Shown here: piece after piece, positions 6,718 through 41,188 of the stretch
Layout: the number at the start of each line of letters is the position of its first letter
How positions within the stretch are numbered: the stretch's first letter is position 1
From: Sphingomicrobium sp.
GTDB lineage: Bacteria; Pseudomonadota; Alphaproteobacteria; Sphingomonadales; Sphingomonadaceae
Length of the DNA stretch: 64,000 nt
Reading direction: 5' to 3'
Assembly: GCA_036376635.1 (NCBI GenBank)
Contig: DASUZY010000052.1
Coordinates: 7,905 to 71,904, forward strand
Translations under genes and position numbers: made by a program
The notes under the pieces: generated by a model
The model's database searches: none
Told to the model about the DNA's origin: nothing
The model's input: the letters and a program-made list of their open reading frames with translations, nothing else

Positions 6718-9700
6718 ATGCGACTTTCCAGAACCGCTCTGCTCGCAACCACGTTGCTGTCGGGCGTTACCCTGGCTGGCCCTGCTTTTGCGCAGACCAC
6801 AACTACTGCGACGCCACCCACCCCGGCGCCAGCAACGCAGACCTGTGCTGACGGCACTGTGATTGCGGCCAGCGCAACTTGCACGGTCGCGCCGGCTCCT
6901 GCGTCCGTGGCACCCGCGACGCCAGCATCTTCCCAGGAGACGATTGTCGTCACCGGTTCGCGCATCGCGTCGCCGAACATCACGTCGCTCGCTCCGATCC
7001 AGGTCGTCGGTGAGCAGGAAATCAACCAGGCCGGCGCGGTCAACATTCAGGAAGTCCTGAACAACAACCCGGCGTTCGGTACGCCGGCCCTGTCAACGAC
7101 CACCACTGCGTTCCTGACCTCGGGCGCCGGTGTTGCGACCGTCAACCTTCGCCAGCTCGGTGAGAACCGCACCCTGGTGCTGATCAACAACCGCCGCGTC
7201 GTCGGCGGCCTCGCTGGTTCGCCGATCGTCGACTTGAACGACATCCCGACCCAGTTCCTCGAGCGCGTTGACATCCTGACCGGCGGTCAGTCGGCGTTGT
7301 ACGGCTCGGACGCCGTCGCCGGTGTCGTCAACTTCATCTACAAGCGCAATTTCGAGGGCCTACTGCTCGAAGGCCAGTACGGCCTGACTGAGCACGGCGA
7401 TTCGCAACGCTATCAGCTCAGCGCGACTGCCGGCGGCAACTTCGCCGACGGCCGCGGCAACATCATGGTCCACGTGGGCTATAGCTCCGACAAGGGCTTG
7501 CTCTCGCGTGAACGCAAGGACACGCGGGTCGATAACATCAGCCAGATGCAGTATTCGTACGATCCGGCTGATTATGCGGTGGCCCATACGCCGTTCCTGT
7601 CGAGCTATCCTCCGCAGGGCCGGTTCACGTCCGGCGGCATCACCTGGACCTACGGGCCAACGGGCCAGCTGCAGCCGTGCTTCACCACTAACGGCTCGAC
7701 CTGTAAGAGCGCGCTCGGCACGGGAACTGGACCGAACGGCTTTAACCGCCAGTTCTTCCGTACCCTGTCGACCCCGGTCGACCGCTATCTGTTCGCAGAG
7801 CGCAGCCACTTCGACATCACGGACAACATCAGCTTCGTGACCGAAGCGACCTATGCCAAGACGAAAGCGAGCTCGGATATTGAGCCGTTCCCGTTGGACT
7901 CGGTCAACATCAACCCGGTCGATGCAACCGTTCCGATCCAGCTGGTTCCGGGCGGCCCCTGCACCTTCTACACGCCGGCTCCGATCTGCGCCGCGGCTAC
8001 TGACTCGAACGGCGATGGCCTGAAGGACATAAGCTTCCGCAAGCGCTTGTCCGACGTTGGTGACCGTACGGCTACGGCCAATCGCGACTTCTTCCGCATT
8101 GTCGTGAGCCTCGAAGGCAAGCTGTTCCACGACCGGTTCAGCTGGGACATCGGCTACAATTACGGCTCGACCAGTGAAGCTCAGCACTCGACCGGGCAGG
8201 TCAACGTACTGAACTTCTACAACGCCCTTCAGGCAACGTCGGATGCAAACGGCAACCCCGTTTGCGCCAATCCGGTCGCGGTCGCCCAGGGCTGCGTCCC
8301 GCTGAACATCTTCGGCACCAACAGCATGACCCCGGCGATGCTCGCGTATATCAATGCCGACTCGCAGCATAACGTTCAGGTCAAGCAGCAGGTGTGGGAT
8401 GCCAACCTGTCGGGCAGCCTGTTCGATCTTCCCGCGGGTCCGCTCGGCATCGCCATCGGCGCCGAATACCGCAAGGAGTCCAGCACCGAGGACTGGGATG
8501 CGCTGACCAACGAGGGCCTGAACGGCGGCAACGTCCTTCCGGACACCTCGGGCCGGTTCAACGTCAAGGAAGCTTATGGCGAGGTCAACGTGCCGATCCT
8601 CAAGGATCTGCCGTTCGTCAAGCAGCTGAACGTTCGCGGCGCGGGTCGTATTTCCGACTATTCCACGATCGGTAGCGTCAAGACGTGGGAGGTCGGTGGC
8701 GACTGGGCCCCGATCGACGACATCCGCTTCCGCGCGACGTTGGCGAAGGCCGTCCGTGCGCCGAACATCGGCGAGCTGTTCACCGGCCTGTCGCAGACCT
8801 TCCCACTCGTTCGCGACCCTTGCCAAGGCATCGGCGCAACCGGTGGTGGAGCTCTCGGCGACAACTGCCGCGCAGCACCGGGTGTCGCTGCGAACATTGC
8901 GCAGAATGGAACGTTCACGCTGACGCAGGCTGACATCCAGGGTGTCAGCGGCTTCAACGGCGGCAACCCGAACCTCGGGCCGGAGACGGGCCGTACGTTC
9001 ACCGCCGGTGTCGTCATCGCGCCTCGGAACATCAGCTTCCTGCGCAATATGTCGCTCTCGGTCGACTACTGGCACATCAAGATCACCAACGCGATCACGA
9101 CGATCAGCCGTCAGCTGATCCTCGACCAGTGCTATCAGGACGGCTTGGCCAACGCCTGCTCGTTGATCACTCGTAACCCGACCCAGATCGGCGGTGCGAG
9201 CTCTGGTTCGATCAAGTTCGTGAACGACTTCGCGATCAACGCCGCGTCATCGACACGGTCGGGTATCGACGCTGTCCTGCAGTATCGCAGGGGTCTCGGC
9301 ACCTTGTTCGGCAGCCCGCTGAACATGAACGCCCGGATTGCCTACACGCACCTGTTGAAGGGCTACACGATCCCGCTTCCGGGTCAGCCGGCTGACCGTG
9401 TCGCGGGCGAAATCGGAACGCCGAAGGACAAGTTCAACGCAACTCTCGGTTTCGACAACCGCCAGTGGGGCTTGAACCTGACCGGGACATACATCGGCAA
9501 GTCGTACGAGGATGATCAGTTCCTGGACGCGTTCGGGCTCAACCCCGATGCGATCTCGATCAAGCCGATTTTCTACCTCGACGGGCAGCTCCGGTTCACG
9601 CCGGTGCGCAAGTTCGAGTTCTTCGTCGGCGTCGACAACATCACGAATGTGCAGGCTCCGGTCATCCTGTCCGGCTCGCCATTCAACACGACGGGTTCGA

Positions 9701-9768
9701 ACACCGACGAAGCGGTCTACGACGTGTTCGGCCGCCGCTACTACGCCGGTGCGCGCCTCCGCTTCTAA
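6718..9768 (+). CDS. TonB-dependent receptor (TBDR1)
   Basis: Signal peptide ending PAFA; TonB box ETIVVTGS; plug motifs LRQLGENRTLVLIN and YGSDAVAGVVNFI; terminal strand GRRYYAGARLRF. Confidence 0.95.
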   Translation: MRLSRTALLATTLLSGVTLAGPAFAQTTTTATPPTPAPATQTCADGTVIAASATCTVAPAPASVAPATPASSQETIVVTGSRIASPNITSLAPIQVVGEQEINQAGAVNIQEVLNNNPAFGTPALSTTTTAFLTSGAGVATVNLRQLGENRTLVLINNRRVVGGLAGSPIVDLNDIPTQFLERVDILTGGQSALYGSDAVAGVVNFIYKRNFEGLLLEGQYGLTEHGDSQRYQLSATAGGNFADGRGNIMVHVGYSSDKGLLSRERKDTRVDNISQMQYSYDPADYAVAHTPFLSSYPPQGRFTSGGITWTYGPTGQLQPCFTTNGSTCKSALGTGTGPNGFNRQFFRTLSTPVDRYLFAERSHFDITDNISFVTEATYAKTKASSDIEPFPLDSVNINPVDATVPIQLVPGGPCTFYTPAPICAAATDSNGDGLKDISFRKRLSDVGDRTATANRDFFRIVVSLEGKLFHDRFSWDIGYNYGSTSEAQHSTGQVNVLNFYNALQATSDANGNPVCANPVAVAQGCVPLNIFGTNSMTPAMLAYINADSQHNVQVKQQVWDANLSGSLFDLPAGPLGIAIGAEYRKESSTEDWDALTNEGLNGGNVLPDTSGRFNVKEAYGEVNVPILKDLPFVKQLNVRGAGRISDYSTIGSVKTWEVGGDWAPIDDIRFRATLAKAVRAPNIGELFTGLSQTFPLVRDPCQGIGATGGGALGDNCRAAPGVAANIAQNGTFTLTQADIQGVSGFNGGNPNLGPETGRTFTAGVVIAPRNISFLRNMSLSVDYWHIKITNAITTISRQLILDQCYQDGLANACSLITRNPTQIGGASSGSIKFVNDFAINAASSTRSGIDAVLQYRRGLGTLFGSPLNMNARIAYTHLLKGYTIPLPGQPADRVAGEIGTPKDKFNATLGFDNRQWGLNLTGTYIGKSYEDDQFLDAFGLNPDAISIKPIFYLDGQLRFTPVRKFEFFVGVDNITNVQAPVILSGSPFNTTGSNTDEAVYDVFGRRYYAGARLRF

Positions 9769-9849: not shown

Positions 9850-11652
9850 TTAGGGACGAAAGAGCGGCGCGTCGGGGTAGGAGTCCACGACGTCGCCCAA
9901 CGCGCGACGCAATGGCCCGAGCCACTGCTCGAAGTTCCGCCAATGATCGAGCCCAGCAAGGTTCATAGGGCGTCGAACTTGCTCGGAGCTAGGCGTCTTC
10001 ACTGCACGCTTGGTTTCGTGAAACCGAAGACAAGCTTCCTCGAACGGAAGCTCAAGATAGTCGAGGAGACTTCTAATCTCCTGCTCCGGTTCCCGGACCA
10101 GCTCCTCGTGAATGACACGGTGGACGCGACCGGGGAGCATCCGGTCCATGTGCTCCATCAGACGCACGTAGTCGCCGTAGTAACGCCCGAACCATTCGAG
10201 ATCGTAGCTGAAGGCCTGTCCGAAAACGAAATGCTGTTTGAAGTTCGAGAACCCGCAAGCCATCGGGTGCCGCCGCGCGTCAATGATCTTGGCGTTGGGC
10301 AGCATCAGGTGGATCAGTGGCGCCATCAGCCAATTGTTCGGCATCTTGTCGATGAAGCGCGGCTTGCCTTCGATGCGGAATGACTTCGTCTCATCGAGAT
10401 ATTGGGCCCCCATCGCCGCGAATTGTTCAGCGGGGAATGAGGCCAGTAGCTCCAGGAAATTTCGCTCCGCCCGCCCGGCATCACGAGCGACGGCCGACAG
10501 GTTGAGCAGTTCCATCGTCCCTTCGATTGCCGAATGACTCGCCAGGATTTGTTCGACCAACGTCGAACCGGCCCGTGGCATACCAAGCACGAAGACTGGT
10601 TCGCTGGATGGGTCGCCCCAACCTTCCCGCTCGCGGAAGAACTGCCCATCGAACATTGCGCAGAGTTCGTCGACTTCGGTCGTCACGTCGGCAGGATCAT
10701 AATCCAACGACTGCCTTCGGAGCGCATTTCCAGCTTCATAGTGCCGGAAGGCGGGCTCAAACTCGCCCGCATCTTCAAGCGCCTTGCCGAGCGCGAAATG
10801 CAGGTGGAAGCGGTTCTCAACCGAAACGTCGGGGTCACGTACCGCTGCTTCCATCTGGCGCAGGTCCTCGTCGGAAAAATCCGCAACCTTAAGGTTCGAT
10901 AAGTTCCACCATGCCGAGCCAGAAGCTGGTGCGATTTCGATCGCCGTGCGCATTGCCCGGCGACCTTCCTCGGAGCGCCCCACGGTCTTCAGCACATGTC
11001 CGTAGTTCGACCACAGCGTCGCATCGCGCGGCGCTTCCTGCAGGAGCTTCTCGTAAAGCGCGATCGATTCATTGTAGCGCGCGCCGCGGCTTAGCGCCTG
11101 GGCTTTGATTGACTGAGCCGCTCGGTTGGCCGGTTCCCTCTCGAGGATCCTATCGAGTTCCGCGATCGCTTCCAGCGGCCGATTTTGACGCTGTAGCTCC
11201 GAAGCGAGATCGAGTCGCCCGCCGTTGAACTGCGGTTGGAACTCCAGCGCAAGCCGAAGGAGCTGCTCGCATGCGTCATAGTAAGCGAGATCCCTAAGCA
11301 GTCTCGCCATCAATATAAGCGCATTCACGTCGGTCGGCCGCTGGATCAGCCTCTCGCGCAGAATTTTCTCGGCGGTTTCCAGGTCTCCGGCAGCAAGAGC
11401 GTCGGAGGCACGCATCAGCGGATGGTCGAAAGCTTGGACCGTGGTGCGCAGCTGCCCACCTGTCGCCGAATCCCTCTCCAACTGACCAAGCGCCTTCGCC
11501 AGTGTGCGATAGGCCGGGATGTTGAGGGGTTCGTCGGCGATTAGCAGCCGCAGCTCGTGGACAGCCGTCGTCGCGTCCGACCTTGCTTTCAGCTCAAGCT
11601 CGACCAGGCGCGGATCTTGCCGTGATTCTGTCATCTTCGTTTCAGCAGCCAA
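9850..11652 (-). CDS. TPR-repeat sulfotransferase family protein
   Basis: N-terminal TPR-like helical repeats; 5'-PSB motif GMPRAGSTLVEQIL; FIDKMPNN; RHPMACGFS (3'-PB region); VKTPSSEQVR. Confidence 0.92.
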   Translation of the reverse strand: MAAETKMTESRQDPRLVELELKARSDATTAVHELRLLIADEPLNIPAYRTLAKALGQLERDSATGGQLRTTVQAFDHPLMRASDALAAGDLETAEKILRERLIQRPTDVNALILMARLLRDLAYYDACEQLLRLALEFQPQFNGGRLDLASELQRQNRPLEAIAELDRILEREPANRAAQSIKAQALSRGARYNESIALYEKLLQEAPRDATLWSNYGHVLKTVGRSEEGRRAMRTAIEIAPASGSAWWNLSNLKVADFSDEDLRQMEAAVRDPDVSVENRFHLHFALGKALEDAGEFEPAFRHYEAGNALRRQSLDYDPADVTTEVDELCAMFDGQFFREREGWGDPSSEPVFVLGMPRAGSTLVEQILASHSAIEGTMELLNLSAVARDAGRAERNFLELLASFPAEQFAAMGAQYLDETKSFRIEGKPRFIDKMPNNWLMAPLIHLMLPNAKIIDARRHPMACGFSNFKQHFVFGQAFSYDLEWFGRYYGDYVRLMEHMDRMLPGRVHRVIHEELVREPEQEIRSLLDYLELPFEEACLRFHETKRAVKTPSSEQVRRPMNLAGLDHWRNFEQWLGPLRRALGDVVDSYPDAPLFRP

Positions 11653-11655
11653 AGA

Positions 11656-12396
11656 TCAGGGGCGATTGCCGATCGGGCCGGGTCGAGGGTCGGCCCGGAA
11701 CCAGCCGGTAACAGCCAAGCGCTCCGCGTTGACATAAGTCGATACCATCGAAACCGAATGAAGCTGCGGGATGGTGAAGATGTTCAGCGTATTGAACGTC
11801 GGCTTGAACGCCTCCTCGACGTTACCCTCTTTATCGAAGAACTGGAGAAATCCGCCCCAATCCTTGTCCCATACCGGCGACAAGTTCATCACATACGCTG
11901 CTCGCCGCCCCTCCCCACTATGTTCGTCGGTATGGGCCTTCAGGAAGTGCCCAGGCTTGTACCACGTCGCCTGAGCATCAGCCCATTTGATGTCATGGAG
12001 GCCAGTCACCTTGCGGATGAAATCAAGCACAGGCTCGCTGTTGATGAACTCGTAGAAGTCGAACACCGCGAAGCGCGGCGCGTCAGGTGAAAAGTAGGCG
12101 TTGAGGATCGGAAAGAACGAATAAATGAACTGATATTGCGTCCGCGCGCGTTCGCGGATGCCGGTCATAATCTGTGCGGCTTCTGTCTGCCCGAGCTGTG
12201 CCAGGTGCTCGGCGCTCAGCTGAACGACCTTGTCTCCATCATTGAAGGCCATTGCCCAAGGCAGCTGGTGAAGATCGGCGTGCACCTCTTCAGATGAGCC
12301 TTGAGCGAGGAAATCGTGGATCTGCAGCCGAAGCTTCTTCCGGTAATCGGCCGCGAGCGCGTCGGCATTCAGCGCAGGGTTCAGCAAGACTGACAC
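11656..12396 (-). CDS. 2OG-Fe(II) oxygenase, prolyl-4-hydroxylase/EGL-9-like
   Basis: ATWYKPGHFLKAHTD (HxD), WDKDWGGFLQF, distal His in QLHSV, and 2OG-binding Arg in ERLAVTGWF. No signal peptide. Confidence 0.88.
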   Translation of the reverse strand: MSVLLNPALNADALAADYRKKLRLQIHDFLAQGSSEEVHADLHQLPWAMAFNDGDKVVQLSAEHLAQLGQTEAAQIMTGIRERARTQYQFIYSFFPILNAYFSPDAPRFAVFDFYEFINSEPVLDFIRKVTGLHDIKWADAQATWYKPGHFLKAHTDEHSGEGRRAAYVMNLSPVWDKDWGGFLQFFDKEGNVEEAFKPTFNTLNIFTIPQLHSVSMVSTYVNAERLAVTGWFRADPRPGPIGNRP

Positions 12397-12469
12397 GTTG
12401 ACACCAACCTCCGGACTCAGGAACGTGCGCTGCGCCGCAGCACGCGGCTTCTAATGTTCAGAAGCGCCG

Positions 12470-13498
12470 ATGTCTTTGAAGAATGATGCCGCCCCGCTGA
12501 TTGCCGATCCGCAATGGTTTCCCTCCCGCTGGAATCCTCAGGATGGCACCATCCAGTTCGTCCGGCTGACGCGTGCCGAACATGACTCGGTCACCTTTCT
12601 CGGCGACGAATATCTGGCACCGCTGAACGCGCCGTCGACGATGCTTGCATTATCGGACGTTGCCAGGGCTTTGCCCCCGTCGCTTCCCTCACCGCAATAT
12701 ATCTTCCACTCCGCGTTCTGCGGCTCCACGCTATTGTCCCGCGCACTCAACGTGCCCGGCAGCGCGATGTCGCTGAAGGAACCCCAAATCCTGAATACGG
12801 TGACGGAAGCTGCCCGCTCGAATGCCTTGTCTCGTGAGACACTGCAGACGATCGTCGGGCTATTGGCGCGGCCGTTCGGTCCCAACGAGCGGGTCGTCAT
12901 CAAGCCAAGCAATGTCGTGAACCTGCTCGCCACCGGACTGCTCGAAATCGATTCCGGGTCGAACGCCATTTTCCTGTATGCGCCCCTGAACGGGTTTCTG
13001 CAGTCGATCGCGGACAAGGGCCTCTGGGGCCGGATCTTCGCTCGGCAGCTATTCCGGACGCTTCAGTCGGATACTGGCCTGACGTTCGGCTATTCGGTCG
13101 AGGAGACGCTCGATCTGACTGACCTTCAGGCGGCGGGCCTTGCCTGGCTGATGCACCACGCGCAGGCGGCGGCGCTGATGACGCGTTTGCCGGGTCGCGT
13201 ACGAACGCTCAACAGCGAGACCTTCCTCGCCCGTCGATCCGAGACAATCCTGGCGTCTGCGGCCCATCTTCGACTGGCAATCAGCGAAGCCAAAGCCGCG
13301 GAAATTGTCGACGGTCTGGTGTTTGCAACCCACTCAAAGCAGCTTGGGCAGGACTTCAACGAAGCCAAACAGCAATCGAAGTCGCGCGGCGCAATTGTAG
13401 ATGAAGAGATTGTAATGGTGGCAACATGGACGTCCGAAATGGCCAACCGGAACGGCCTGCCAATGCAGCTCCCGGCAGAGTTCCAGCTTATCCCCTAA
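12470..13498 (+). CDS. Hypothetical protein with a sulfotransferase-like P-loop
   Basis: IFHSAFCGSTLLSRAL, SLKEP and VVIKPS resemble sulfotransferase-fold elements, but the PSB Arg/Lys is missing. Confidence 0.65.
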   Translation: MSLKNDAAPLIADPQWFPSRWNPQDGTIQFVRLTRAEHDSVTFLGDEYLAPLNAPSTMLALSDVARALPPSLPSPQYIFHSAFCGSTLLSRALNVPGSAMSLKEPQILNTVTEAARSNALSRETLQTIVGLLARPFGPNERVVIKPSNVVNLLATGLLEIDSGSNAIFLYAPLNGFLQSIADKGLWGRIFARQLFRTLQSDTGLTFGYSVEETLDLTDLQAAGLAWLMHHAQAAALMTRLPGRVRTLNSETFLARRSETILASAAHLRLAISEAKAAEIVDGLVFATHSKQLGQDFNEAKQQSKSRGAIVDEEIVMVATWTSEMANRNGLPMQLPAEFQLIP

Positions 13499-13610: not shown

Positions 13611-13676
13611 CCCCTCTTTCTCTGATTAGTCTGCTCCCCGACACGAGGCGCCCATTCGTGTCGGGAGAAGAAGGGG
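13611..13676 (+). promoter_or_regulatory. Structured 5' leader of TBDR2 that can occlude the RBS
   Basis: Perfect 10-bp stem 13637-13665. An outer pairing of cccctctttctc with gagaagaagggg (11/12 pairs counting one G-U) covers the SD. Confidence 0.45.
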
Positions 13677-13684
13677 GATTCAGA

Positions 13685-16600
13685 ATGCAGAACCGTATTG
13701 GCGCCGTGCTGCGCTGTGGCAGCGCGTTCACCGCTATAGCGATTGCCGCAATGATGCCGACCGCGGCATCTGCAGCAGCTGCGGCCGATGCCGCACCGCC
13801 GGCCGATGCAACTCAGGCGGCGGCGCAGGCGGCAGCAACAACGCCAACCGGCACCAATGGCAATGAAATTGTCATTACCGGAACGCGCATCGCCGGCATC
13901 ACCAACGCCAACAGCCCGAGCCCGGTCTCGGTTACGACTAGCGAGCAGATCCAGCTTACCAAGTCGACCAGCGTTGAAGATGTCCTTCAACGCATGACGG
14001 GCCCTGACGCCAACGGCATATCGAACACCTCGAACAATGGCGGCACCGGCGTTTCCAGCGTCAGTTTGCGCAATCTCGGGCCGGCGCGAACGCTGGTCCT
14101 GATCGACGGCACGCGCCTGATCCCGAGCGGCGCTAACCAGTCGATCGTCGACATCAACTCGATTCCCGTCGCGATGATCGAGCGGATCGAAGTCCTCCGA
14201 GACGGTGCATCGTCCGTCTACGGTGCGGACGCGATTGGCGGCGTGGTCAACATCATTACTAAGCAGCACGCCAGTGGCGTTCACATCGAGGGTGGCGCGG
14301 GCGCCAGCCAACACGGCGGAGGCAACACCTACAACATCGCGGGTACGATTGCGGCCAATAGCGATGTTGCCAACGTCATCGTCGGATTCAGCTGGGATCA
14401 CCGCAATGCGCTGAATGGCTATCAACGCGACTGGGCCAACGATCCACACATCGGCGATCCAAACTATGAGGGTGGGTCCACCTATCGTACCCAGCTCGAT
14501 ACGCTTCAGTCCGAAGCGCCCGTCACGCTGACTAACGCGACGGTCGTGAACGGCGTGCTTCAGCCCGCTGGAACGACCATCTCCGGCCTGCTGGCGATTA
14601 ACGGGCAATTCTATACTCGGAAGAATCCGGCGGTGGCTGGCCTGCTGCCCAACACGGTGTTTCTCCCGGGACTTGGCGTCGTCAAGCTCAACGCAAACGG
14701 CAGCGCGAACGACCCGTACAACACGTTGTCCGGTTCGCTCGACCGTAAGGAGATCAACGCCGGAGCGCACTACGACATCAACGATAGTGTGACGGTATTC
14801 GCCGACGGTTTCTTCTCTCACCGCACATCGCAGCAGCTTCTCCGCCCGGAACCGCTGCTCGGTGATACAATCGGCAACTCGGTCTATCCGGGCTTCGCGG
14901 TGGCAGCGAACGCTCCTGGGAACTCAACCGGGACAGGCTACTTCGCCTATCTAACGCCAGATCAGTTCGGACCGAGAACTTATGATCAGTCGTCGGATAC
15001 CTGGCGCATCAGGGCCGGTCTGCGCGGCGACCTGTTTGGCGACTTCAAATATGAAGTTGCCGGCGTAGAGCAGCAGAACGACCAGCTTGTGCTGGTTCAC
15101 AACACCGGAAACTTCCTCCACCTGGGCGAGATGACCGGTCAGTTCCCGTGCCTCGACGTGCCGGGCGGCTGTACGGGCGGCGTGCCAACGACTCAGCCGA
15201 ACTGGTTCAATGGGCCTGAGAATATCTTCACCCCTGATCAGCTCGACTACGCCAAGTTCACCATGCAGAGCAGCCAGCATGCCTATGAGCGGTATGTCTA
15301 CGGCAACCTCTCCGGCTCCCTGTTCAGGCTTCCTGGAGGTGATGCGAAGATCTCCGTCGGCGGCGAGTATCGGAAGGAGTTCCTGAGCTTCCTGCCCGAT
15401 CAGCTTGAAAGCGAAGGGTTCGCTCCGAACCAGATCCAGCCGACTGCCGGCGGATATAACGTCAAGGGTCTGTACGGCGAATTGTACTTGCCGCTCATCA
15501 GCGATCGGCCCTTCTTCAAGGCATTCGACATCACGCCCAGCGGCCGTATCGACAAGTACAGCACGTTCGGCACGGCGAAGACCTGGAAGGTCGGTGCGAA
15601 CTGGGCATTGTCGGACGACATCCGCTTCCGCGGTGCATACGCGACCGGCTTCCGTGCGCCTCAGGTCACCGAGTTGTTCGGGGGCCAGGGTCTGTCGGAT
15701 CTGGGCGCGAGCGGTGATCCCTGCGAAACCAACCTGGCGTTGGCACCGGGCAACAGTAACGTCGGCAAGGGCTTGTTGGGCGCTGGTTCGCAGTGTTCCA
15801 AGGCAGTTGCTGGTGGCGCGGCGGTGACGACGTTCACTGATCCGCTCGACCAGATTGCCGGCAGCCAGGTCCAGGTTCTAATCGGCGGCAACCCCGCGCT
15901 GCAGCCCGAAAAGTCGCGCGGCTGGACTGTCGGCGGCGTGTTGACGCCCAGGTTCATGCCGGGCTTCTCGTTCGAGGCCGATTTCTATCGGACGAAGATC
16001 CGGAACCAGATTCTGACCGGCGGCGTCGCTACTGCGGTTGGCGCGGACTACGTCCTCCTCGACTGCTACGGTCCGAACCAGAATCCGGTGTCTTGCGCAC
16101 AGATCCAGCGTTCGGCGAACGGTGCAATCCTGCAGATCGACAGCCTTAACGACAATATCGGCACTCAGACCGTCAAGGGCTATGATCTCGAGCTAACGTT
16201 CGACACCGGCCGGGCGCACTGGGCCATGCCGATCCCGGGCTCGATCCGCCTCGATGCGCAATTGTCGCGGCTGATCCAGAACGACATCGTGAACGCCGAT
16301 GGCAGCGTGACGAGCTATGCGGGCACCTTCAACGTCAACAACGAGACGGTCTATCCAAAGTGGAAAGGCCTTATCAACATCGACTACGCGAACCGCGGCT
16401 GGGGTCTGCACTGGGATGCCCAGTACAGCTCGAAGCTCGTCAATGTTGATGGCTCGACGCCGGTGTACGGCAACGAAGTCCACGATCGCTGGATCCATTC
16501 AGCCAGCGTTTGGGTCGGACTGCATGACTGGGCGGGTCTGTCGCGAGCCCGGCTGGTGCTTGGCGTAGATAATGTCTTCGACAAGAACCCGCCGTTCATC

Positions 16601-16876
16601 GGCACCGACTCAATCTGTAAGTGCAACTCGATCGCGGGTCCGTACGACTTCACCGGAAGGATGTTCTACTTCCGGTTCTCGGCCGACATCGATCGTCACC
16701 GGCCGGTTGCGCCGCCGCCTCCGCCGCCACCCCCGCCGCCTCCGCCGCCTCCAGCGACAGTGACGTGCGAGTCCGGCGCGGTGATCACGGCTCCGGGCAC
16801 CTGCCCAGCTCCGCCGCCGCCTCCGCCTCCGCCTCCGGCCCCGCCGCCGCCGGCTCCGGCGCCCGAGCGCGGCTAA
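13685..16876 (+). CDS. TonB-dependent receptor (TBDR2) with a C-terminal polyPro/C-x11-C/PERG tail
   Basis: ATG 13685 after aggggg SD; TonB box NEIVITGT; LRNLGPARTLVLIDG; YGADAIGGVVNII; last strand GRMFYFRFSADI followed by a ~60-aa tail. Confidence 0.95.
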   Translation: MQNRIGAVLRCGSAFTAIAIAAMMPTAASAAAAADAAPPADATQAAAQAAATTPTGTNGNEIVITGTRIAGITNANSPSPVSVTTSEQIQLTKSTSVEDVLQRMTGPDANGISNTSNNGGTGVSSVSLRNLGPARTLVLIDGTRLIPSGANQSIVDINSIPVAMIERIEVLRDGASSVYGADAIGGVVNIITKQHASGVHIEGGAGASQHGGGNTYNIAGTIAANSDVANVIVGFSWDHRNALNGYQRDWANDPHIGDPNYEGGSTYRTQLDTLQSEAPVTLTNATVVNGVLQPAGTTISGLLAINGQFYTRKNPAVAGLLPNTVFLPGLGVVKLNANGSANDPYNTLSGSLDRKEINAGAHYDINDSVTVFADGFFSHRTSQQLLRPEPLLGDTIGNSVYPGFAVAANAPGNSTGTGYFAYLTPDQFGPRTYDQSSDTWRIRAGLRGDLFGDFKYEVAGVEQQNDQLVLVHNTGNFLHLGEMTGQFPCLDVPGGCTGGVPTTQPNWFNGPENIFTPDQLDYAKFTMQSSQHAYERYVYGNLSGSLFRLPGGDAKISVGGEYRKEFLSFLPDQLESEGFAPNQIQPTAGGYNVKGLYGELYLPLISDRPFFKAFDITPSGRIDKYSTFGTAKTWKVGANWALSDDIRFRGAYATGFRAPQVTELFGGQGLSDLGASGDPCETNLALAPGNSNVGKGLLGAGSQCSKAVAGGAAVTTFTDPLDQIAGSQVQVLIGGNPALQPEKSRGWTVGGVLTPRFMPGFSFEADFYRTKIRNQILTGGVATAVGADYVLLDCYGPNQNPVSCAQIQRSANGAILQIDSLNDNIGTQTVKGYDLELTFDTGRAHWAMPIPGSIRLDAQLSRLIQNDIVNADGSVTSYAGTFNVNNETVYPKWKGLINIDYANRGWGLHWDAQYSSKLVNVDGSTPVYGNEVHDRWIHSASVWVGLHDWAGLSRARLVLGVDNVFDKNPPFIGTDSICKCNSIAGPYDFTGRMFYFRFSADIDRHRPVAPPPPPPPPPPPPPPATVTCESGAVITAPGTCPAPPPPPPPPPAPPPPAPAPERG

Positions 16877-16898
16877 ACCTCGGAGCTGACCAACGAGA

Positions 16899-16928
16899 GG
16901 GGCGGTGCCTAGCACCGCCCCCTTTTTT
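16899..16928 (+). terminator. Intrinsic terminator of TBDR2
   Basis: ggggcggtgc-cta-gcaccgcccc followed by tttttt. Confidence 0.85.
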
Positions 16929-16951
16929 GCGCCCGAGCGAAGTGTCGGGTC

Positions 16952-16969
16952 TGTGACGCAATTGTCACA
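16952..16969. promoter_or_regulatory. Palindromic operator candidate TGTGAC-N6-GTCACA
   Basis: Perfect 6-bp arms between the TBDR2 terminator and the TBDR3 leader. Confidence 0.45.
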
Positions 16970-17102
16970 CCAGCATAACGAAAGATAACAGTCTTATCGG
17001 AGCGTGTTGCCTCCCACCCCCTTACTTTGGATAGGAGTCTGTTCGCGGGCCTCCGCGAATGGGGAGGGGTCGCGCCGGCTTGTCCGGCTGAAAGGGAGCG
17101 AC

Positions 17103-20100
17103 ATGACACTGACAAAATCGCGTATCGCCGCCGGTTGGCGGTGCGGAACCGCTGCGACGGCCATCGCCGTTGCCGCGATCGCCACGCCTGCTTTCGCGCA
17201 GGATCAAGGCGCCAGCAGCACTTCGACTGCGGCCAAGGACCAGAACCAGGGGACTGCAGCACCCCAGGTCGGAACGAATGCACCGGCTGTTCCTGTCTCG
17301 AACGTCAATCCAGGGGCGACGCCGAGCAACCAGGAAATCGTCATCACCGGCACGATGTTCCGGCGTACCAACACGGAGACGCCGTCTCCGGTGACCGTCC
17401 TCTCTTCTGAAACCCTGTCGAGGCGCGGCATCACCACTGTCGCGGACGCGGTTCGCTCGATCTCCGCTGACAATTCGGGCTCGGTTCCGACTGCCTTCTC
17501 CAACGGCTTTGGCAGCGGCGGCGCGGCCCCCTCTCTTCGCGGCCTGACGGTCAATTCGACGCTGGTGCTAATGGACGGCCAGCGCATCTCCATTTTCCCG
17601 CTCGCCGACGACGGCCAGCGCAACTTCGTCGACCTCAACACGCTCCCGCGCGTCGCGCTGGACCGTATCGAGGTGCTGAAGGACGGCGCATCGTCGACCT
17701 ACGGCGCAGACGCGATCGGCGGCGTGGTCAACCTCATCACGCGCAAGTCATTCAACGGTCTTGACGCCAACATTGAGGGCGGAATTACTCAGAAGGGCGA
17801 TGGCGCGCATTGGCGCGGTTCGTTCCTGGCCGGCACCGGCGATTACGACAATCGCGGGTTCAACATTTATGTTGGCGGCGAATATGAGCTGAACAAGGCG
17901 ATCTACACGGCGGATCGCGGATTCCCTTACAACACGGCGAACCTTTCGAACCTGCCGGGCGGACAGGACCTCAACTGGGGCACGTTCATCAATGGTTCGA
18001 GCTCACAGAGCCCGGTGTTCGTCACGGTTCCGGCTTCGCAATCCGATCTGACGGATCCGCGGACGGGGTCGATCATCTCCGGCGGCGCGTCAGTCATTCT
18101 CAACCCGTCCCAGTGCGGTGCGTTCAATGGATCGATCGTTCCGGGTACGAACGGCGGACAGACCTGCGAGATCAACCAGTATCTGATCAAGCCAGGCCTG
18201 ACGATCCAACCGAAGACCGTAAGGTACGGCGGCGTGGTTCGCGCGTCGGTTCGCGTTTCGGACAACAGCGAAGCCTATGTGATGGGCAGCTTCTATCGCA
18301 GCCAGGCGACAGTCTACCCGCTTGGCGCGCGCACTCGCTCGACCAACCCGATCAATACCACGAGCCTCGTTCTTCCGGCTTACCTAACAAACGGTTCGAT
18401 CGACCCCTACGATCCGTTCGCGTCGGCCGGGTGCGATGCGACCGACACGACGGCAGCCAACTACTGTCCGGCCGCGTTGCTTCGCTTCCGCTTTCCGAAC
18501 ATCGCACGTACGGCAACGGGAACCAGTAGCGTGTGGCGCATCGCGGCTGGCATCAACGGTGGGTTCGGCGATGCCTGGCACTACCAGGTGGATGCTACCG
18601 CATCGGCCAGCGACCTGCACCGCGTGTCGACCGGCAACATCTATTACCCGGCGCTCGCGAACGCGATCAACAACGGACTCTACAACTTCGCCGATCCGCT
18701 TGCGACACCGGCGAATGTCGTCAACGACATCCTGCGGACTGTCGACACCACGTCGCAGTCCCAGCTGTTCGGTGTGCAGGGCACCATCTCCCGGGCGCTG
18801 TTCCAGCTTCCGGGCGGACCGCTGCAACTCGGCGTGGGTGCTCAAATCCGCCACGAGGAGCTCGACAACCCGAACCAGAATCCGAACAACGACTTCATCG
18901 ACGTGAACCAGGTGTTCGCGAAGGGTCAGCGGACGGTCGAGGCCGGATATTTCGAAATCTCGGCGCCGATCGTGAAGCAGCTCGAGGTCGACGTTTCGGG
19001 CCGGTACGACCATTACTCGGCCGGATTCAGCGCGTTCTCGCCGAAGGCTGGGTTCAAGTTCACACCGATCCGCCAGCTGGCTTTCCGCGGAACATACTCC
19101 CGCGGTTTCCGCGCTCCTTCGTTCGCTGAGAGCGGCGGTGGTGTCATCGGCTTCACCACGGTTCGACCACCCTGCATCGTTCGAATCACGCACGGTGCGA
19201 CGGGCGATGCGGACAACTGCTCGGGCGGTGACAACTACGTCAATTCGCAGGCTCTCGGGTATAACTCCGCGGGTAACCCGAACCTGAAGCCCGAAAAGTC
19301 GCGTAACTTCACGCTTGGTGTCGTTGCCCAGCCGATTGCTCCGCTGAGCTTCACGTTGGACTATTACAACATCAAGAAGACCGACGTGATTACGCAAGGT
19401 CCGCTCGCCAATACGGCGATCGAGAACTTCTACGAAGGCTTGCCATTGCCGCCTGGTTATTCGGTTCAGACCTACCCGGCTGATCCGGATTTCCCGAACG
19501 GCATCCCGGTCGTGTCGATTGTGAACACGCCATATGTGAACGCGGCGTCGATCCAGACCTCGGGTCTCGACTTCTCGGCGCTGTTCCAGAAGCGGTTCTC
19601 ACCGTCTGTCCGGTTCTCGAGCACGCTCGAGGTCACCAAGATCCTGAAGTTCAACCTGACGCCGTGCGGCGGGTGCGCGGTTCAGCATTATGCAGGCACC
19701 TTGGGCCCGTACCAGCTGTCGTCGGGTGCCGGTACGCCGGACTGGCGCGGCAACTGGTCGAACAGCCTGGAGTTTGGCCGGGCTACGGTGACGGCGACCG
19801 CCAACTATATCGGCAGCTATTGGGACTACTCGGAGGACACGAGCGCTCTGCCGATTACCGACAAGTGCGTTGCGGCGGGCGATCTGTACGACTCGCACTT
19901 CTGCAAGACCAAGAAGTTCATCTGGGTTGACCTGGTCGGCAGCTTCAAGCTCAACGACAACGTCACGATTTACGGCAACGTGCTGAACCTGTTCAACGCG
20001 CATGCCCCGATCGAGCCGGCGAACTACGCCGGTGCGGCGGCCAACTACAACCCGACCTGGGACCAGGCGGGTGCAATTGGCCGGGCGTTCCGTTTGGGCG

Positions 20101-20297
20101 TGAACTTCAGCTTCCGCCCGCGTCCGTACGTTGCACCGGTCGCTCCGGTCATGGCTCCGCCGCCTCCGCCGCCCCCGGCGACGGTGACGTGCGAGTCTGG
20201 TGCGGTGATCACGGCTCCGGGTACCTGCCCGCCGGCTCCGGCGCCGCAGCTTCCGCCGCCGCCACCGCCGCCGGCGCCGGCTCCAGAGCGCGGTTAA
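17103..20297 (+). CDS. TonB-dependent receptor (TBDR3) with a C-terminal polyPro/C-x11-C/PERG tail
   Basis: ATG 17103 after agggag SD; TonB box QEIVITGT; LRGLTVNSTLVLMDG; YGADAIGGVVNLI; last strand GRAFRLGVNFSF followed by a 60-aa tail. Confidence 0.95.
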   Translation: MTLTKSRIAAGWRCGTAATAIAVAAIATPAFAQDQGASSTSTAAKDQNQGTAAPQVGTNAPAVPVSNVNPGATPSNQEIVITGTMFRRTNTETPSPVTVLSSETLSRRGITTVADAVRSISADNSGSVPTAFSNGFGSGGAAPSLRGLTVNSTLVLMDGQRISIFPLADDGQRNFVDLNTLPRVALDRIEVLKDGASSTYGADAIGGVVNLITRKSFNGLDANIEGGITQKGDGAHWRGSFLAGTGDYDNRGFNIYVGGEYELNKAIYTADRGFPYNTANLSNLPGGQDLNWGTFINGSSSQSPVFVTVPASQSDLTDPRTGSIISGGASVILNPSQCGAFNGSIVPGTNGGQTCEINQYLIKPGLTIQPKTVRYGGVVRASVRVSDNSEAYVMGSFYRSQATVYPLGARTRSTNPINTTSLVLPAYLTNGSIDPYDPFASAGCDATDTTAANYCPAALLRFRFPNIARTATGTSSVWRIAAGINGGFGDAWHYQVDATASASDLHRVSTGNIYYPALANAINNGLYNFADPLATPANVVNDILRTVDTTSQSQLFGVQGTISRALFQLPGGPLQLGVGAQIRHEELDNPNQNPNNDFIDVNQVFAKGQRTVEAGYFEISAPIVKQLEVDVSGRYDHYSAGFSAFSPKAGFKFTPIRQLAFRGTYSRGFRAPSFAESGGGVIGFTTVRPPCIVRITHGATGDADNCSGGDNYVNSQALGYNSAGNPNLKPEKSRNFTLGVVAQPIAPLSFTLDYYNIKKTDVITQGPLANTAIENFYEGLPLPPGYSVQTYPADPDFPNGIPVVSIVNTPYVNAASIQTSGLDFSALFQKRFSPSVRFSSTLEVTKILKFNLTPCGGCAVQHYAGTLGPYQLSSGAGTPDWRGNWSNSLEFGRATVTATANYIGSYWDYSEDTSALPITDKCVAAGDLYDSHFCKTKKFIWVDLVGSFKLNDNVTIYGNVLNLFNAHAPIEPANYAGAAANYNPTWDQAGAIGRAFRLGVNFSFRPRPYVAPVAPVMAPPPPPPPATVTCESGAVITAPGTCPPAPAPQLPPPPPPPAPAPERG

Positions 20298-27833: not shown

Positions 27834-30173
27834 GTGCGCCCCTTCCGCTCCCTGAGCGCACGCCTCACCGTTCAATTTGCACTGCTATTCGCAGTCGCCA
27901 TGCTCGGCGTATCCGCGGCGCTATGGAGCTTCATCGCCGGCGCTGCGTCGCGAGAGGTTGAAGGACAACTGCAATCGAGCGGCGCAGTGTACGACCGCTT
28001 GTGGCAGCAGCGAGCACACGAACTGCAGAGTGCGGCGGAGCTGCTCGCGCGCGACTTCGGTTTCCGGGCAGCGGTCGCCAGTGGCGACCAGGCAACGATG
28101 CAATCGGCGCTGGGCAACGCGGCTCAGCGCCTGCGCGTCCGTAGCGCATTCATTGTCACCGCCGATGGCAAGATATCGAGCATTGACGGCACGGTTCCGG
28201 TCAGCGAGCCGACGGCCCTCTGGTCTCCGCTCGACGACGGACGCCTTGCGGGCGTCGCAGTCCTCGGCGGGCACCCGCGCCAGCTCGTCGCTGCTCCGAT
28301 CATGGCACCCACGCTAATCGGCTGGGTGGTCTTCGCGGCCGACCTTGACGGGCGTGAGATGCGGGGACTTGAGCGACTATCGGCGATACCGCTGCACGCG
28401 GCGGTGATTGCGAGCGACAAGGGCCGCTGGGCGGAGGCCTCCGGCAGCATGTCCGCGCTGGACGTGCCGTCCACCAGGCTTGCGGAAGCTCACGTCGGCA
28501 ATTCGGCTGCGTTCGAGATGAACGTGGGTGGCCGCGATTCAATAGCATTGGCCAAACCCCTTCCGACCTTCGCAGATCGTGATCGGGCAATCCTGCTATT
28601 GGCTTACCCCAAGGCACAGGCGCTTGCCGATGCCCGCAAGCTGCAGCTGGCGCTTGGCGTCATGACGCTGCTTGGCCTGATCCTCGTCGCGTTCGCCACG
28701 TGGCGCGCTGCCAGCCGCATTACACAGCCCCTCGCGCGGCTCGATGAAGCCGCCGGTCGTCTCGCTTCCGGCGAACCCGTCCAGGTGCGCGTGCGCGGCG
28801 AAGATGAACTCGCTCGGTTGGCAGAAAGCTTCAACGAGATGGTTGGCAAGATCGCCGAGCGCGAGCAGCGAATCACGCAACTCGCCTTCAACGATACGCT
28901 GACCGGCTTGCCCAACCGCACCATGTTCCAGCAGCAGCTCGATCACCTGTTTCGCGCATCGGAAGGCAACGGCAGCTTGTTCGCGCTGCACTGCCTCGAC
29001 CTCGACCATTTCAAGGTAATCAATGACACGCTCGGACACCCCGCGGGCGATGCGCTGCTGATCGAGGCAGCGCGCCGCGTCCAGCATGCTGCCCGAGGCC
29101 ACTTTGTCGCACGTCTTGGTGGCGACGAGTTCGTCGTGCTCCAGACGGTCGGGGAAGATCGGGACTCAATCGACCGATTGGCCCGGGACATCCTAGGTGA
29201 GATCCTCAAGCCGATAGCGCTCGACGGGAACGAGATTGTCCCTTCGACCAGCATTGGTATCGCCATTGCTCCGCAGGACGGAAGGGACAGCGGAACGCTT
29301 CTGCGTAGCGCCGACCTCGCACTCTACCGTGCCAAGGAGGCTGGGCGAGGCACCTATGCTTTCTTCGAGGAGAGCCTGAACGAGCGAGCGCAGCAGCGGC
29401 GGCAGATCGAGAGCGACCTTCGCCTGGCGCTGGATCGCGGCGAGTTCGAGCTTCACTACCAACCGCTATTCGATCTCGAGCAGAACCGCATTTGCTCCTT
29501 CGAGGCGCTTCTTCGCTGGCGTCATCCGGAACTCGGCCTCATTTCGCCTTCGGACTTCGTGCCCGTCGCGGAGGACACCGGGCTGATCGTTCCGATCGGA
29601 GCCTGGGTGGTTCGGGAGGCATGCGCTCGTGCTGCTTGTTGGCCCGAGCATATACGCGTGGCCGTGAACGTCTCGGCGGTGCAGTTTCACCGAGGCGTCA
29701 TGCACGAGACGATCCTGCGCTCCCTGGCGGACAGCGGGCTCACGCCAAACCGGTTGGAAATCGAGATCACCGAGTCGATCTTCCTCGAAGGCGGCGATAC
29801 GACGCTTCGGCTCCTCCATGCGCTGCGCGCGCTCGGCGTACGCATCGCCCTCGACGATTTTGGCACCGGTTACTCATCGTTGAGCTACTTGCAGAGCTTC
29901 CCGTTCGACAAACTGAAGATCGACCGCAGCTTCATTCAGAACCTGCTGACCCGCGACGGTGCCATCGCCATCGTCCATGCAATCACCGAACTCGCCAATG
30001 CGCTCGGCATCGAGACCACGGCGGAGGGCGTCGAGGAAACCGCGCAGCTGATGGAGCTTAGAGCCCACGGTTGCTCCTCGGTACAGGGTTATCTGTTCGC
30101 TGAGCCGATGTCTGCGGCGGACGTCGAACGACTATTCAGTGAGGGTAGCGAAACGCTTCAGAACGTTGCGTGA
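27834..30173 (+). CDS. Membrane sensor-HAMP-GGDEF-EAL protein
   Basis: Two TM helices around a periplasmic domain; HAMP (DELARLAESFNEM); DTLTGLPNR; intact GGDEF; EALLRW; DDFGTGYSS; KIDRSF; AEGVE. Confidence 0.93.
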   Translation: MRPFRSLSARLTVQFALLFAVAMLGVSAALWSFIAGAASREVEGQLQSSGAVYDRLWQQRAHELQSAAELLARDFGFRAAVASGDQATMQSALGNAAQRLRVRSAFIVTADGKISSIDGTVPVSEPTALWSPLDDGRLAGVAVLGGHPRQLVAAPIMAPTLIGWVVFAADLDGREMRGLERLSAIPLHAAVIASDKGRWAEASGSMSALDVPSTRLAEAHVGNSAAFEMNVGGRDSIALAKPLPTFADRDRAILLLAYPKAQALADARKLQLALGVMTLLGLILVAFATWRAASRITQPLARLDEAAGRLASGEPVQVRVRGEDELARLAESFNEMVGKIAEREQRITQLAFNDTLTGLPNRTMFQQQLDHLFRASEGNGSLFALHCLDLDHFKVINDTLGHPAGDALLIEAARRVQHAARGHFVARLGGDEFVVLQTVGEDRDSIDRLARDILGEILKPIALDGNEIVPSTSIGIAIAPQDGRDSGTLLRSADLALYRAKEAGRGTYAFFEESLNERAQQRRQIESDLRLALDRGEFELHYQPLFDLEQNRICSFEALLRWRHPELGLISPSDFVPVAEDTGLIVPIGAWVVREACARAACWPEHIRVAVNVSAVQFHRGVMHETILRSLADSGLTPNRLEIEITESIFLEGGDTTLRLLHALRALGVRIALDDFGTGYSSLSYLQSFPFDKLKIDRSFIQNLLTRDGAIAIVHAITELANALGIETTAEGVEETAQLMELRAHGCSSVQGYLFAEPMSAADVERLFSEGSETLQNVA

Positions 30174-31303: not shown

Positions 31304-31304
31304 C

Positions 31305-32120: not shown

Positions 32121-32758
32121 GCCGGCACCTGCTGCCTGTCGGGATGGGCTGCTGCGAACCCTTCGAGCTTGTTGGCATTCTCTTCGGCTCGCAGCAATGT
32201 TGGATAGCCGTCCAGCGGCACGTCAAACCGCCGCGCGTTGTAGAGTTGAGGCACCAGGCAGACGTCGGCCCCGGTGGGTGCGTTGCCGAACAGGAACTTG
32301 CCTGCCTGCGGCGCTGCAAGCGCCTCGAGTGCGCCCAGGCCCTCGGTGATCCAATGCGCATACCAGCGGTCAACTTCGGGCTGGTCATGCCCAAGCTCGT
32401 TCTTGAGATACTTGAGTACGCGAAGGTTGTTGAGCGGATGGATGTCGCAGGCGACCGCCATCGCCATCGCGACGACGTGCGCCCGATCGGCGGCGGAAGC
32501 AGGGATCAGCGGCTGGTTCGGATACCGGATGTCGAGATAGTTGAGGATGGCGAGGCTCTGGGTCAGCCGGTGGCCGTCGATCTCCAGCAGCGGCACCAGG
32601 CCTTGCGGGTTGAGCTCAAGGAAATCCGCGGATTTCTGCTCGTCTTCACGAAGGTCGATCTCGCGACTCTCATAGTCGACATTCTTGAGTTTGAGGGCGA
32701 TGCGGACGCGGTAACAGGCGGACGACCGCCAGTAATCGTAGAGGATCGGCTTCGGCAT
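32117..32758 (-). CDS. maiA: Maleylacetoacetate isomerase (GST zeta class)
   Basis: YWRSSACYRVRIAL, NPQGLVP, LTQSLAI, ACDIHPLNNLRVL. Confidence 0.92.
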   Translation of the reverse strand: MPKPILYDYWRSSACYRVRIALKLKNVDYESREIDLREDEQKSADFLELNPQGLVPLLEIDGHRLTQSLAILNYLDIRYPNQPLIPASAADRAHVVAMAMAVACDIHPLNNLRVLKYLKNELGHDQPEVDRWYAHWITEGLGALEALAAPQAGKFLFGNAPTGADVCLVPQLYNARRFDVPLDGYPTLLRAEENANKLEGFAAAHPDRQQVPA

Positions 32759-32768
32759 GAGCCGCTGC

Positions 32769-41187: not shown

Positions 41188-41188
41188 G

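Follow-up and report, generated by a model that had tools for sequence, protein, structure and literature searches.

A polyproline tail ending in Glu-Arg-Gly on TonB-dependent receptors of Sphingomicrobium: a candidate outer-membrane-to-peptidoglycan tether

Two tailed receptors at the locus

The window examined here is a 64,000-nucleotide stretch of the genome of a Sphingomicrobium sp. (C52:7905-71904; contig DASUZY010000052.1 of assembly GCA_036376635.1), which we analyzed together with a translation of the whole assembly (2.46 Mb, 146 contigs). It carries three TonB-dependent receptors, TBDR1, TBDR2, and TBDR3 (Table 1), the second and third of which continue well past the end of their barrels. 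TBDR1 closes in the usual way, on ...GARLRF. In TBDR2 and TBDR3, the aromatic-ended last strand is internal (...FYFRF and ...VNFSF, respectively) and is followed by 60-65 residues that finish on PAPAPERG-stop in both proteins; almost all of the ~17 other TonB receptors of the genome have a canonical C-terminus. These extensions had been picked out in a first-pass annotation of the sequence, whose account of the three C-termini, with its coordinates for the two tails, holds and whose count of the proline runs (14 and 9 residues in TBDR2 versus 7 and 7 in TBDR3) is confirmed by translation. We propose that the tails are copies of a lineage-specific periplasmic tether between the outer membrane (OM) and peptidoglycan, probably dependent on an L,D-transpeptidase (LDT), a reading to which we give an even chance on comparative evidence.

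The two tails are far more alike than the receptors that bear them. An 18-residue core, ATVTCESGAVITAPGTCP, is identical between them, and the shared unit is the whole tail of ~56-60 amino acids. Over 102 aligned nucleotides spanning core and terminus, the tails differ at 11 positions, every one of them a synonymous third-base change, with no non-synonymous difference, whereas outside the tail the plugs and barrels are only 28% identical. The tail is thus a separate module constrained at the protein level rather than the end of a recent gene duplicate. No TBDR2 orthologue above 35% identity is present in 8 complete genomes of the genus, its distant relatives have canonical ends, and the receptors that carry tails differ from species to species. 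Several NCBIfam TonB-receptor models match TBDR2 and TBDR3 (E 1e-19 to 1e-40) under their equivalog cut-offs, and both are accordingly treated as generic TonB receptors, a class of proteins that tolerates about 60 residues beyond its beta-signal. The first start of TBDR2 is GTG 13658, with a signal peptide likely from near 13685; that of TBDR3 is GTG 17004, and its likely true start is ATG 17103 (MTLTKSR...).

TBDR1 carries a loop of this kind at its other end. This Cys-Cys loop belongs to the mature N-terminus, where a segment rich in Pro, Ala, and Thr separates the signal peptide from the TonB-box region, and has no ERG; the hidden Markov model (HMM) of the tail matches here at positions 5-55 only (E 4.7e-8).

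Table 1. Features of the locus and of the transpeptidase gene discussed in the text (window positions, unless a contig is named)
Feature	Position	Strand	Evidence or remark
TBDR1, TonB-dependent receptor, canonical C-terminus ...GARLRF-stop	6718-9768	+	Open reading frame, NCBIfam matches
TBDR1 N-terminal Cys-Cys loop TQT-CADGTVIAASATC	6844-6882	+	Translation; tail-HMM match
TPR + sulfotransferase protein	9850-11652	-	Between TBDR1 and TBDR2
2OG-Fe(II) oxygenase	11656-12396	-	PF13661/PF13640
342-aa protein, no Pfam match	12470-13498	+	Between TBDR1 and TBDR2
TBDR2, TonB-dependent receptor with C-terminal tail module	13658-16876	+	Open reading frame, NCBIfam matches
TBDR2 tail DRHRPVA-P14-ATVT-[CESGAVITAPGTC]-PA-P9-APPPPAPAP-ERG-stop	16691-16876	+	Translation; tail HMM E 2.9e-16
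TBDR2 13-residue Cys-Cys loop, predicted disulfide beta-hairpin	16766-16804	+	Translation; hairpin in AlphaFold2 model of C29 homologue
TBDR2 terminal ERG box + TAA stop	16865-16876	+	Translation; E, R, G invariant across tails
TBDR3, TonB-dependent receptor with tail module as in TBDR2	17004-20297	+	Open reading frame, NCBIfam matches
TBDR3 tail RPRPYVAPVAPVMA-P7-ATVT-[CESGAVITAPGTC]-PPAPAPQL-P7-APAP-ERG-stop	20115-20297	+	Translation; tail HMM E 2.1e-17
TBDR3 13-residue Cys-Cys loop	20190-20228	+	Translation
TBDR3 terminal ERG box + TAA stop	20286-20297	+	Translation
LDT beside a tailed small barrel of this genome	C29:13620-15005		PF20142 (Scaffold) + PF03734 (YkuD)

Carriers, anatomy, and distribution of the tail

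The full module takes the form polyPro / [A]TQTC-x-DGSVI-x-AT-xx-C / polyPro / [PG]ERG-stop and is present in eight open reading frames (ORFs) of the genome: five of the ~22 TonB receptors, two small 8-strand barrels (PF13505), and one 88-aa lipoprotein. The lipoprotein is composed of two loops, two proline runs, and GERG, with nothing else; it has a lipobox, L[AS][AS]C, with Ala at +2, and is kept in five genomes. Six further long proteins have a Pro/Ala-rich linker and a [PG]ERG end without a loop, namely peptidases of the M28, S9, and M3 families, a GH3 glycosidase, a TolC-like efflux protein, and a glycine-zipper lipoprotein. By inspection, every [PG]ERG-ended protein has a signal peptide or a lipobox. 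The genome-wide count of such termini that the first-pass annotation had called for bears out an association with export: of 2,354 long ORFs, 12 end in [PG]ERG, whereas the internal frequency of the motif predicts 0.19 (Poisson P ~4e-18), and all 12 are exported (by inspection).

The anatomy of the tail was derived from about 100 tails, with loop length taken from 105 tails and C-terminal ends from 99 tails of other species. A tail starts at the last aromatic-ended strand of a barrel, or at the lipid-modified Cys of a lipoprotein, and runs through a polyproline stretch of ~20 residues, a disulfide-type hairpin, and a second polyproline stretch of ~10 residues to ERG. The loop is 13 residues long in 105 of 105 tails (consensus ATQT-C-PDGSVILATDT-C-P). 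Median distances are 25 residues from the last aromatic of the barrel to the first Cys and 14 from the second Cys to ERG (interquartile range 14-14), with a median of 56 for the whole tail. The picture of a linker plus a four-residue signal drawn in the first-pass annotation missed the conserved disulfide hairpin, the near-fixed rod lengths, and the identical 18-residue core.

None of the tails departs from E, R, or G, and nearly all have P or G just ahead of the box, with a few other residues at that position in other species. The signal first read as PERG-COOH therefore survives as a selected terminal motif on exported proteins, with the correction that the motif is ERG and that position -4 may be P or G. 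The terminus, taken to be fixed, is so in this genome only. Elsewhere, ERG is final in 59 of 99 tails and is followed by one variable residue (L, Q, F, K, R, S, N, or H) in 40, and some tails have ERGERG. Because about 40% of the other-species tails carry this extra residue, a free Gly carboxylate is not required. Lys is absent from the last 15 residues of most tails, and a primary amine is usually lacking.

The codons for ERG differ among tailed genes at synonymous sites, each of the three stop codons is in use, and the DNA 3' of the tails is unrelated. A cause at the DNA level (shared terminator, repeat, or slippage) is ruled out by these stops and flanks together with the synonymous ERG and Pro codons. 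The sequences thus support the view that ERG at the end of exported and OM proteins is functional and under selection.

The tail is also conserved more strictly than the barrel from which it hangs. Across 40 orthologous small outer-membrane proteins (OMPs), identity to the query is 50-58% in the barrel, and the tail (positions 247-297) is almost all invariant. An AlphaFold2 model of the C29 homologue (mean pLDDT 85.7, above 90 in the barrel) ends the barrel at residue 239 (...IYNF) and predicts an extended tail, with the loop folded about its PDG turn into a hairpin of two strands. In the established topology, the C-termini of even-stranded barrels and the lipoproteins lie on the periplasmic side. 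Because barrel C-termini and lipoprotein bodies face the periplasm, the whole module is expected to be periplasmic. The proline runs of tailed genes (e.g., L024-L103) extend up to ~20 residues in mixed codons (CCG 67%, CCT 19%, CCA 9%, CCC 5%), and, since these long runs lie in probably abundant OMPs, translation of tailed genes should depend strongly on elongation factor P.

Dimensions as regular as these invite the explanation that the tail is a spacer and nothing else, its rods and hairpin acting as bumpers, rulers, or filler of the periplasm and its ERG as a polar cap against tail-specific proteases. The tight conservation of rod lengths fits this account, as do two general facts: polyproline is intrinsically stiff, with Pro-rich rods in use in TonB and TolA, and Prc-type proteases are drawn to non-polar C-termini. 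A protective polar cap, however, should avoid the Leu or Phe that is the extra, and last, residue in 19 of the 40 tails that continue past ERG. The invariance of all three residues of ERG goes far past anything that a need for polarity would impose, and ERG occurs also on proteins without rods or loops. We give the spacer explanation little probability.

The first-pass annotation had listed a ligand for PDZ domains or tail-specific proteases among the possible roles of the terminus, which would then be read by a periplasmic protease with a PDZ domain, of the Prc, CtpA, DegP, or DegS type, for quality control, processing, or stress signaling. C-terminal peptides are the classic PDZ ligands, and the motif stands strictly at or near the C-terminus. 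Such reading needs a free carboxylate and a fixed register, however, and ERG is shifted by one residue in 40% of the tails, with a variable last residue. No PDZ gene was noticed beside tailed genes among the ORFs inspected, the neighbors not having been screened systematically, and a degradation tag is hardly to be expected on abundant structural barrels, least of all one conserved more than the barrel itself. We consider a protease ligand very unlikely. A signal for sorting, secretion, or conjugation, by which ERG would direct export to the surface or medium or would mark the terminal Gly, strikes us as most improbable. Short C-terminal tags do sort proteins elsewhere (PEP-CTERM, GlyGly-CTERM, LPXTG), and several soluble hydrolases end in ERG; no transmembrane helix or basic cluster follows ERG, however, the protein ending 0-1 residues on, and the main carriers are integral OM barrels whose C-termini are periplasmic. 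Conjugation at the terminal Gly, another of the early suggestions, is contradicted by the tolerance of one residue of any type after ERG and by the periplasm itself, which has no ATP for Gly activation.

In Pfam and NCBIfam, no model covers the tail; no NCBIfam sorting-domain model matches the tails, and tailed proteins have no match to PF00691 (OmpA_C). A full-text literature search found no description of an ERG-ended polyproline tail, and the module appears to be undescribed in the family models and literature searched. Its distribution is narrow. The tail profile matches 25 of 25 genomes of the genus (Sphingomicrobium), with 1-14 copies each. It has no match in 16 genomes that represent nine further families of the order, nor in 400 other genomes of the class (Alphaproteobacteria). 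Over 301 genomes of the order (87 genera), it matches 19 of 19 from the genus and has two marginal matches elsewhere; a single further genus, that of genome G239, has an ERG-ended tail. A scan of species-representative genomes returned at least 473 confirmed loci. Locus details rest on the best 80, almost all of them labelled Sphingomicrobium, 'Sphingomonas', or, less precisely, Alphaproteobacteria, Pseudomonadota, or Sphingomonadales. Tail-bearing cultured 'Sphingomonas' include sediminicola DSM 18106 (complete genome), daechungensis, arvum, hankyongi, and URHD0057.

Several further observations concern carriers and neighbors of the tail. Loop-less ERG ends number only 3 in about 1,000 other long ORFs of the genus. 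Orthologues of ~900-1,030 aa from two other species (L077 and L089) end in ...SQTERG and ...AQTERG after an Ala/Pro-rich stretch without a loop, and this end is conserved between the species. In another genome of the genus (G022:C1, L106/L107, about 381500-385000 and 30000-42000), autotransporter-like barrels bear the tail; one is part of a ~3,020-aa ORF, after which comes a second, orphan copy of the loop that ends in ...PEPKCG, and the other has an apparent frameshift within the polyproline run between barrel and tail. In this genome (G000), a 323-aa ORF (C141:2682-3651, - strand) encodes a further unusual low-complexity protein of Pro and Cys, with repeated GNGNPCNGNNGNG blocks between runs of 9-10 Pro and no ERG end seen. 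A 254-aa ORF (G000 C86:69216-69978, + strand) ends in ...PPPPPPPSAVPEPNTWALMLVGFGLVG, which resembles a PEP-CTERM sorting signal, so an exosortase system distinct from the ERG tails is probably also present in the organism. Finally, three genes occupy the interval between TBDR1 and TBDR2 (window 9850-13498; Table 1). The 2OG-Fe(II) oxygenase among them was considered as a general prolyl-hydroxylase of the tails and rejected: it is present in 1 of 8 complete genomes of the genus and in 2 of 13 other genera, both tail-less.

Relation to OmpA-type hinges and to L,D-transpeptidases

Relatives outside the genus suggest where the tail came from. In G197, which belongs to a sister genus in the same family, a homologous barrel (...HSLLGTLTFNF) is followed by two Cys loops and polyproline and then by an OmpA_C domain; in G239, from another genus, the homologue ends P19-QTKTCPDGSVVGVMQNC-...-TGERG. 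Since the G197 homologue runs a matching Cys-loop/polyproline hinge into OmpA_C, the tail is an elaborated OmpA-type hinge. From this alignment of parts, ERG stands in the place of the peptidoglycan-binding domain of the relatives. ORFs of the size of a barrel plus OmpA_C (about 365-440 aa, PF00691) are absent from 8 genomes of the genus, whereas almost all other genera of the family have them. OmpA_C proteins number only two in this genome, and both are unrelated, loop-less proteins of lipoprotein or Pal-like type. Lpp, the Braun lipoprotein (PF04728), has no match in 9 genomes of the genus, with a positive E. coli control.

In three genomes of the genus (L108-L110; G215, G157, and G247), a small exported OmpA_C gene lies directly downstream of a tailed small barrel on the same strand. 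Two of the three OmpA_C proteins open with a single Cys loop (CADGRIPTKDGSC, CADDRIVASPAIC), and the arrangement resembles an OmpA gene split in two. This gene order favors the strongest rival to covalent tethering, namely non-covalent docking, in which the hairpin, ERG, or both would bind a stand-alone OmpA_C protein, the scaffold domain of the LDT, or peptidoglycan. The tether would then amount to an OmpA in two pieces joined by protein-protein contact, with LDT neighbors that are coincidental or only recruited. The AtaA-TpgA system offers a precedent, with an OMP resting on a separate periplasmic OmpA_C protein (PMC12523085). Docking also draws on the hairpin without ERG at the N-terminus of TBDR1, which suggests a binding role of the hairpin itself, and on the fact that no amine is present for the known covalent chemistry. 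It leaves unexplained, however, why E-R-G is invariant at 0-1 residues from the end, and why a genus-specific LDT subfamily exists and adjoins tailed genes in varied arrangements. With only the two loop-less OmpA_C proteins noted above in this genome, the partner is not universal, and a stand-alone OmpA_C protein as the general second half of the tether was rejected on the same ground, being found in those three genomes and not in this one. On balance we find docking unlikely.

A candidate for the co-distributed enzyme that the first-pass annotation had recommended looking for is a YcbB-type LDT subfamily confined to ERG-bearing genomes (8 of 8 in the genus, plus G239). Its representative beside the tailed small barrel of this genome (C29; Table 1) combines Scaffold and YkuD domains and has no PG_binding_1 match. 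Homologues at 35-51% identity occur only in the 8 complete genomes of the genus and in G239; in the other 12 genera, including that of G197, which has the loops but retains OmpA_C, the best homologue reaches at most 33% identity, or there is none. The genus is also rich in LDTs overall, with 3-16 YkuD LDT domains per genome. The order's other families have 1-3; within the family, the count is 1-5 in 12 other genera and 7 in G239. This 2.46-Mb genome encodes 7 long YcbB-type paralogues and one short YkuD protein.

An LDT gene is present in 43 of the 80 tailed loci, in ~38 of them convergent with the tailed barrel and 105-190 bp from its stop. Divergent pairs of LDT and tailed gene also occur, and in G239 the LDT precedes a tailed OMP, the two genes being co-directional and overlapping. 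On contig C119 of this genome, the gene for the GERG-ended glycine-zipper lipoprotein is immediately followed by a co-directional LDT gene. The neighboring LDT carries a YLHDT...SNGCVR motif, with SNGC rather than SHGC in 42 of 46 such neighbors, and its catalytic domain aligns to that of E. coli YcbB (6NTW, E 1e-44).

A candidate tether and what it would mean

Among the options first listed for the terminus, peptidoglycan tethering via LDTs is the one favored by the comparative evidence: the LDT expansion, the co-distributed LDT subfamily, the gene adjacency, the replacement of OmpA_C, and the module-only lipoprotein all argue for it. As we envisage the tether, the polyproline rods would be stiff spacers about 100 Å long, and the ERG box would fasten the OM protein to the peptidoglycan layer. 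The module would thus replace, in this genus, both the missing Braun lipoprotein and the barrel-OmpA_C fusions as the link from OM to wall. The YcbB-type subfamily (Scaffold + YkuD, no PG_binding_1, SNGC) would recognize or process the ERG box, a role suggested by its co-distribution with the tails and by gene adjacency.

A number of points weigh against this reading. We infer any contact with peptidoglycan, covalent or otherwise, from comparison. No LDT gene adjoins TBDR2 or TBDR3, and in 7 complete genomes only 6 of 35 module matches lie within 3 kb of an LDT domain; this is more than the expectation of roughly 2% per match, but these cases are not independent of one another, and the adjacency is largely that of one orthologous OMP-LDT pair kept by synteny. 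Within the genus, the number of modules per genome has no evident relation to the number of LDTs. Because the genus and G239 may be sisters, the co-distribution of ERG tail and LDT subfamily may amount to a single evolutionary event. The loop-less ERG of soluble enzymes was rejected as a conserved feature, the ERG end being absent from the S9 peptidase orthologues in 8 other genomes of the genus, and for this reason ERG on soluble enzymes may matter little. Nor is SNGC evidence of new chemistry. The His of SHGC helps donor positioning in LdtMt2, but E. coli YcbB has SSGC at the equivalent place, and we discarded SNGC as a sign of altered donor chemistry, keeping it only as a signature of the subfamily. 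The most serious point is chemical. Every known protein substrate of an LDT is an amine acceptor, via Lys or a free N-terminus (PMC12274547, PMC12729407). Because a primary amine is usually absent, the tails cannot be acceptors in the manner of Lpp or the Brucella OMPs, and an LDT role, for tails without Lys or a free N-terminal amine, needs chemistry that has never been demonstrated.

In the simplest form that this chemistry might take, P/G-E-R-G(-X) would mimic the peptidoglycan stem, L-Ala-D-iGlu-mDAP-D-Ala(-D-Ala), in which iGlu is isoglutamate and mDAP meso-diaminopimelate, and would serve as an acyl donor for the dedicated YcbB-type LDT subfamily. The LDT would cut the Arg-Gly bond with loss of Gly or Gly-X and pass the carbonyl of Arg to a free mDAP amine of the wall. 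On this speculative scheme, 0 or 1 residue would be tolerated after Gly because Gly or Gly-X is the leaving group. Alpha-linked L-Glu and Arg are, however, poor stereochemical copies of gamma-D-iGlu and mDAP, a further mark against an LDT substrate, and we regard the donor scheme as doubtful.

Whatever its chemistry, the module may be set beside several known systems:

(i) With Lpp it shares a short C-terminal motif on an OM-anchored, rod-like protein, the capacity of that motif to sit on unrelated carriers, and an association with LDTs, which for Lpp are of the LdtA/B/C type. The Lpp box is likewise portable, being active on Dickeya OutB as well as on a reporter beta-lactamase (PMC12274547). 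In the present case, the module-only lipoprotein, with its lipobox, rod, and terminal box in about 70 aa of mature protein, is similar in plan to the 58-aa Lpp. The two have no sequence homology (PF04728 is absent), the rod is made of polyproline and disulfide hairpins instead of a trimeric coiled coil, and the box is E-R-G(-X), with no Lys, instead of ...[RK]K. Since the ERG box is without Lys, the chemistry of Lpp, in which a Lys epsilon-amine acts on enzyme-bound mDAP, cannot apply.

(ii) The small carriers are homologous to the 8-strand barrels of OmpA and OprF (PF13505; AlphaFold2 model), and their hinge matches that of the G197 homologue; the OprF hinge also contains cysteines. Unlike in OmpA and OprF, where a Pro-rich hinge leads to OmpA_C, that domain is gone, the hinge is lengthened to two long polyproline runs with an ERG end, and copies of it sit on lipoproteins, TonB receptors, and autotransporter-like barrels.

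(iii) The peptidoglycan-linked barrels of Brucella, Agrobacterium, Coxiella, and Legionella are likewise OM barrels that serve as wall tethers without Lpp. They use an N-terminal Ala or Gly amine or a Lys near the barrel, whereas here an amine-less ERG ends a ~56-residue rod. The predicted mature N-termini of tailed proteins (...AFA/TPNTPYVG and ...AMA/RDGAIYVG, the slash marking the predicted site) have, by eye, no Ala-Asp or Gly-Gly start. The linkage of OMPs to peptidoglycan elsewhere accompanies large LDT repertoires (PMC12729407), with 10-11 LDTs in Coxiella and Legionella; complete genomes of the genus, of 2.2-2.9 Mb, have 5-12. The Legionella barrel Lpg1810 is attached via a C-terminal Lys-Thr, and so has one residue beyond the linking residue (PMC12729407).

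(iv) TonB and TolA also have long Pro-rich segments as stiff, periplasm-spanning spacers. Those proteins are anchored in the inner membrane and point outward, with Glu-Pro/Lys-Pro repeats and a folded C-terminal domain, whereas the tail rods hang from the OM, are nearly pure polyproline, and end in a 3-residue box.

(v) The PEP-CTERM/exosortase, GlyGly-CTERM/rhombosortase, and LPXTG/sortase systems resemble the module in having a short C-terminal signature on unrelated exported proteins and a co-distributed enzyme family. Their tags consist of a signature, a hydrophobic helix, and a basic tail, whereas 0-1 residues follow the ERG box, and no sortase-type enzyme is implicated.

How the OM is attached to the wall in bacteria that lack Lpp is only partly known, and the solved cases use a protein amine, whether of a C-terminal or internal Lys or of the N-terminus. 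Against this background stands one genus in which the barrel-OmpA_C fusions are gone and the tail module has spread to TonB receptors, to both small and autotransporter-like barrels, and to a mini-lipoprotein. If the ERG box is a wall anchor, it would constitute a new anchoring motif and possibly involve new transpeptidase chemistry; there is a modest chance that this chemistry is categorically new. The module would also provide a natural polyproline ruler of the distance from OM to wall, as well as a portable tag for fixing proteins in the periplasm. Should the acyl-donor scheme prove true, the reaction would be a sortase-like, ATP-independent ligation of protein to wall in a Gram-negative periplasm, with the protein as donor, the reverse of every known case, in which it is the acceptor, and the fixed-length polyproline and hairpin rods would set the spacing between the OM and the wall.

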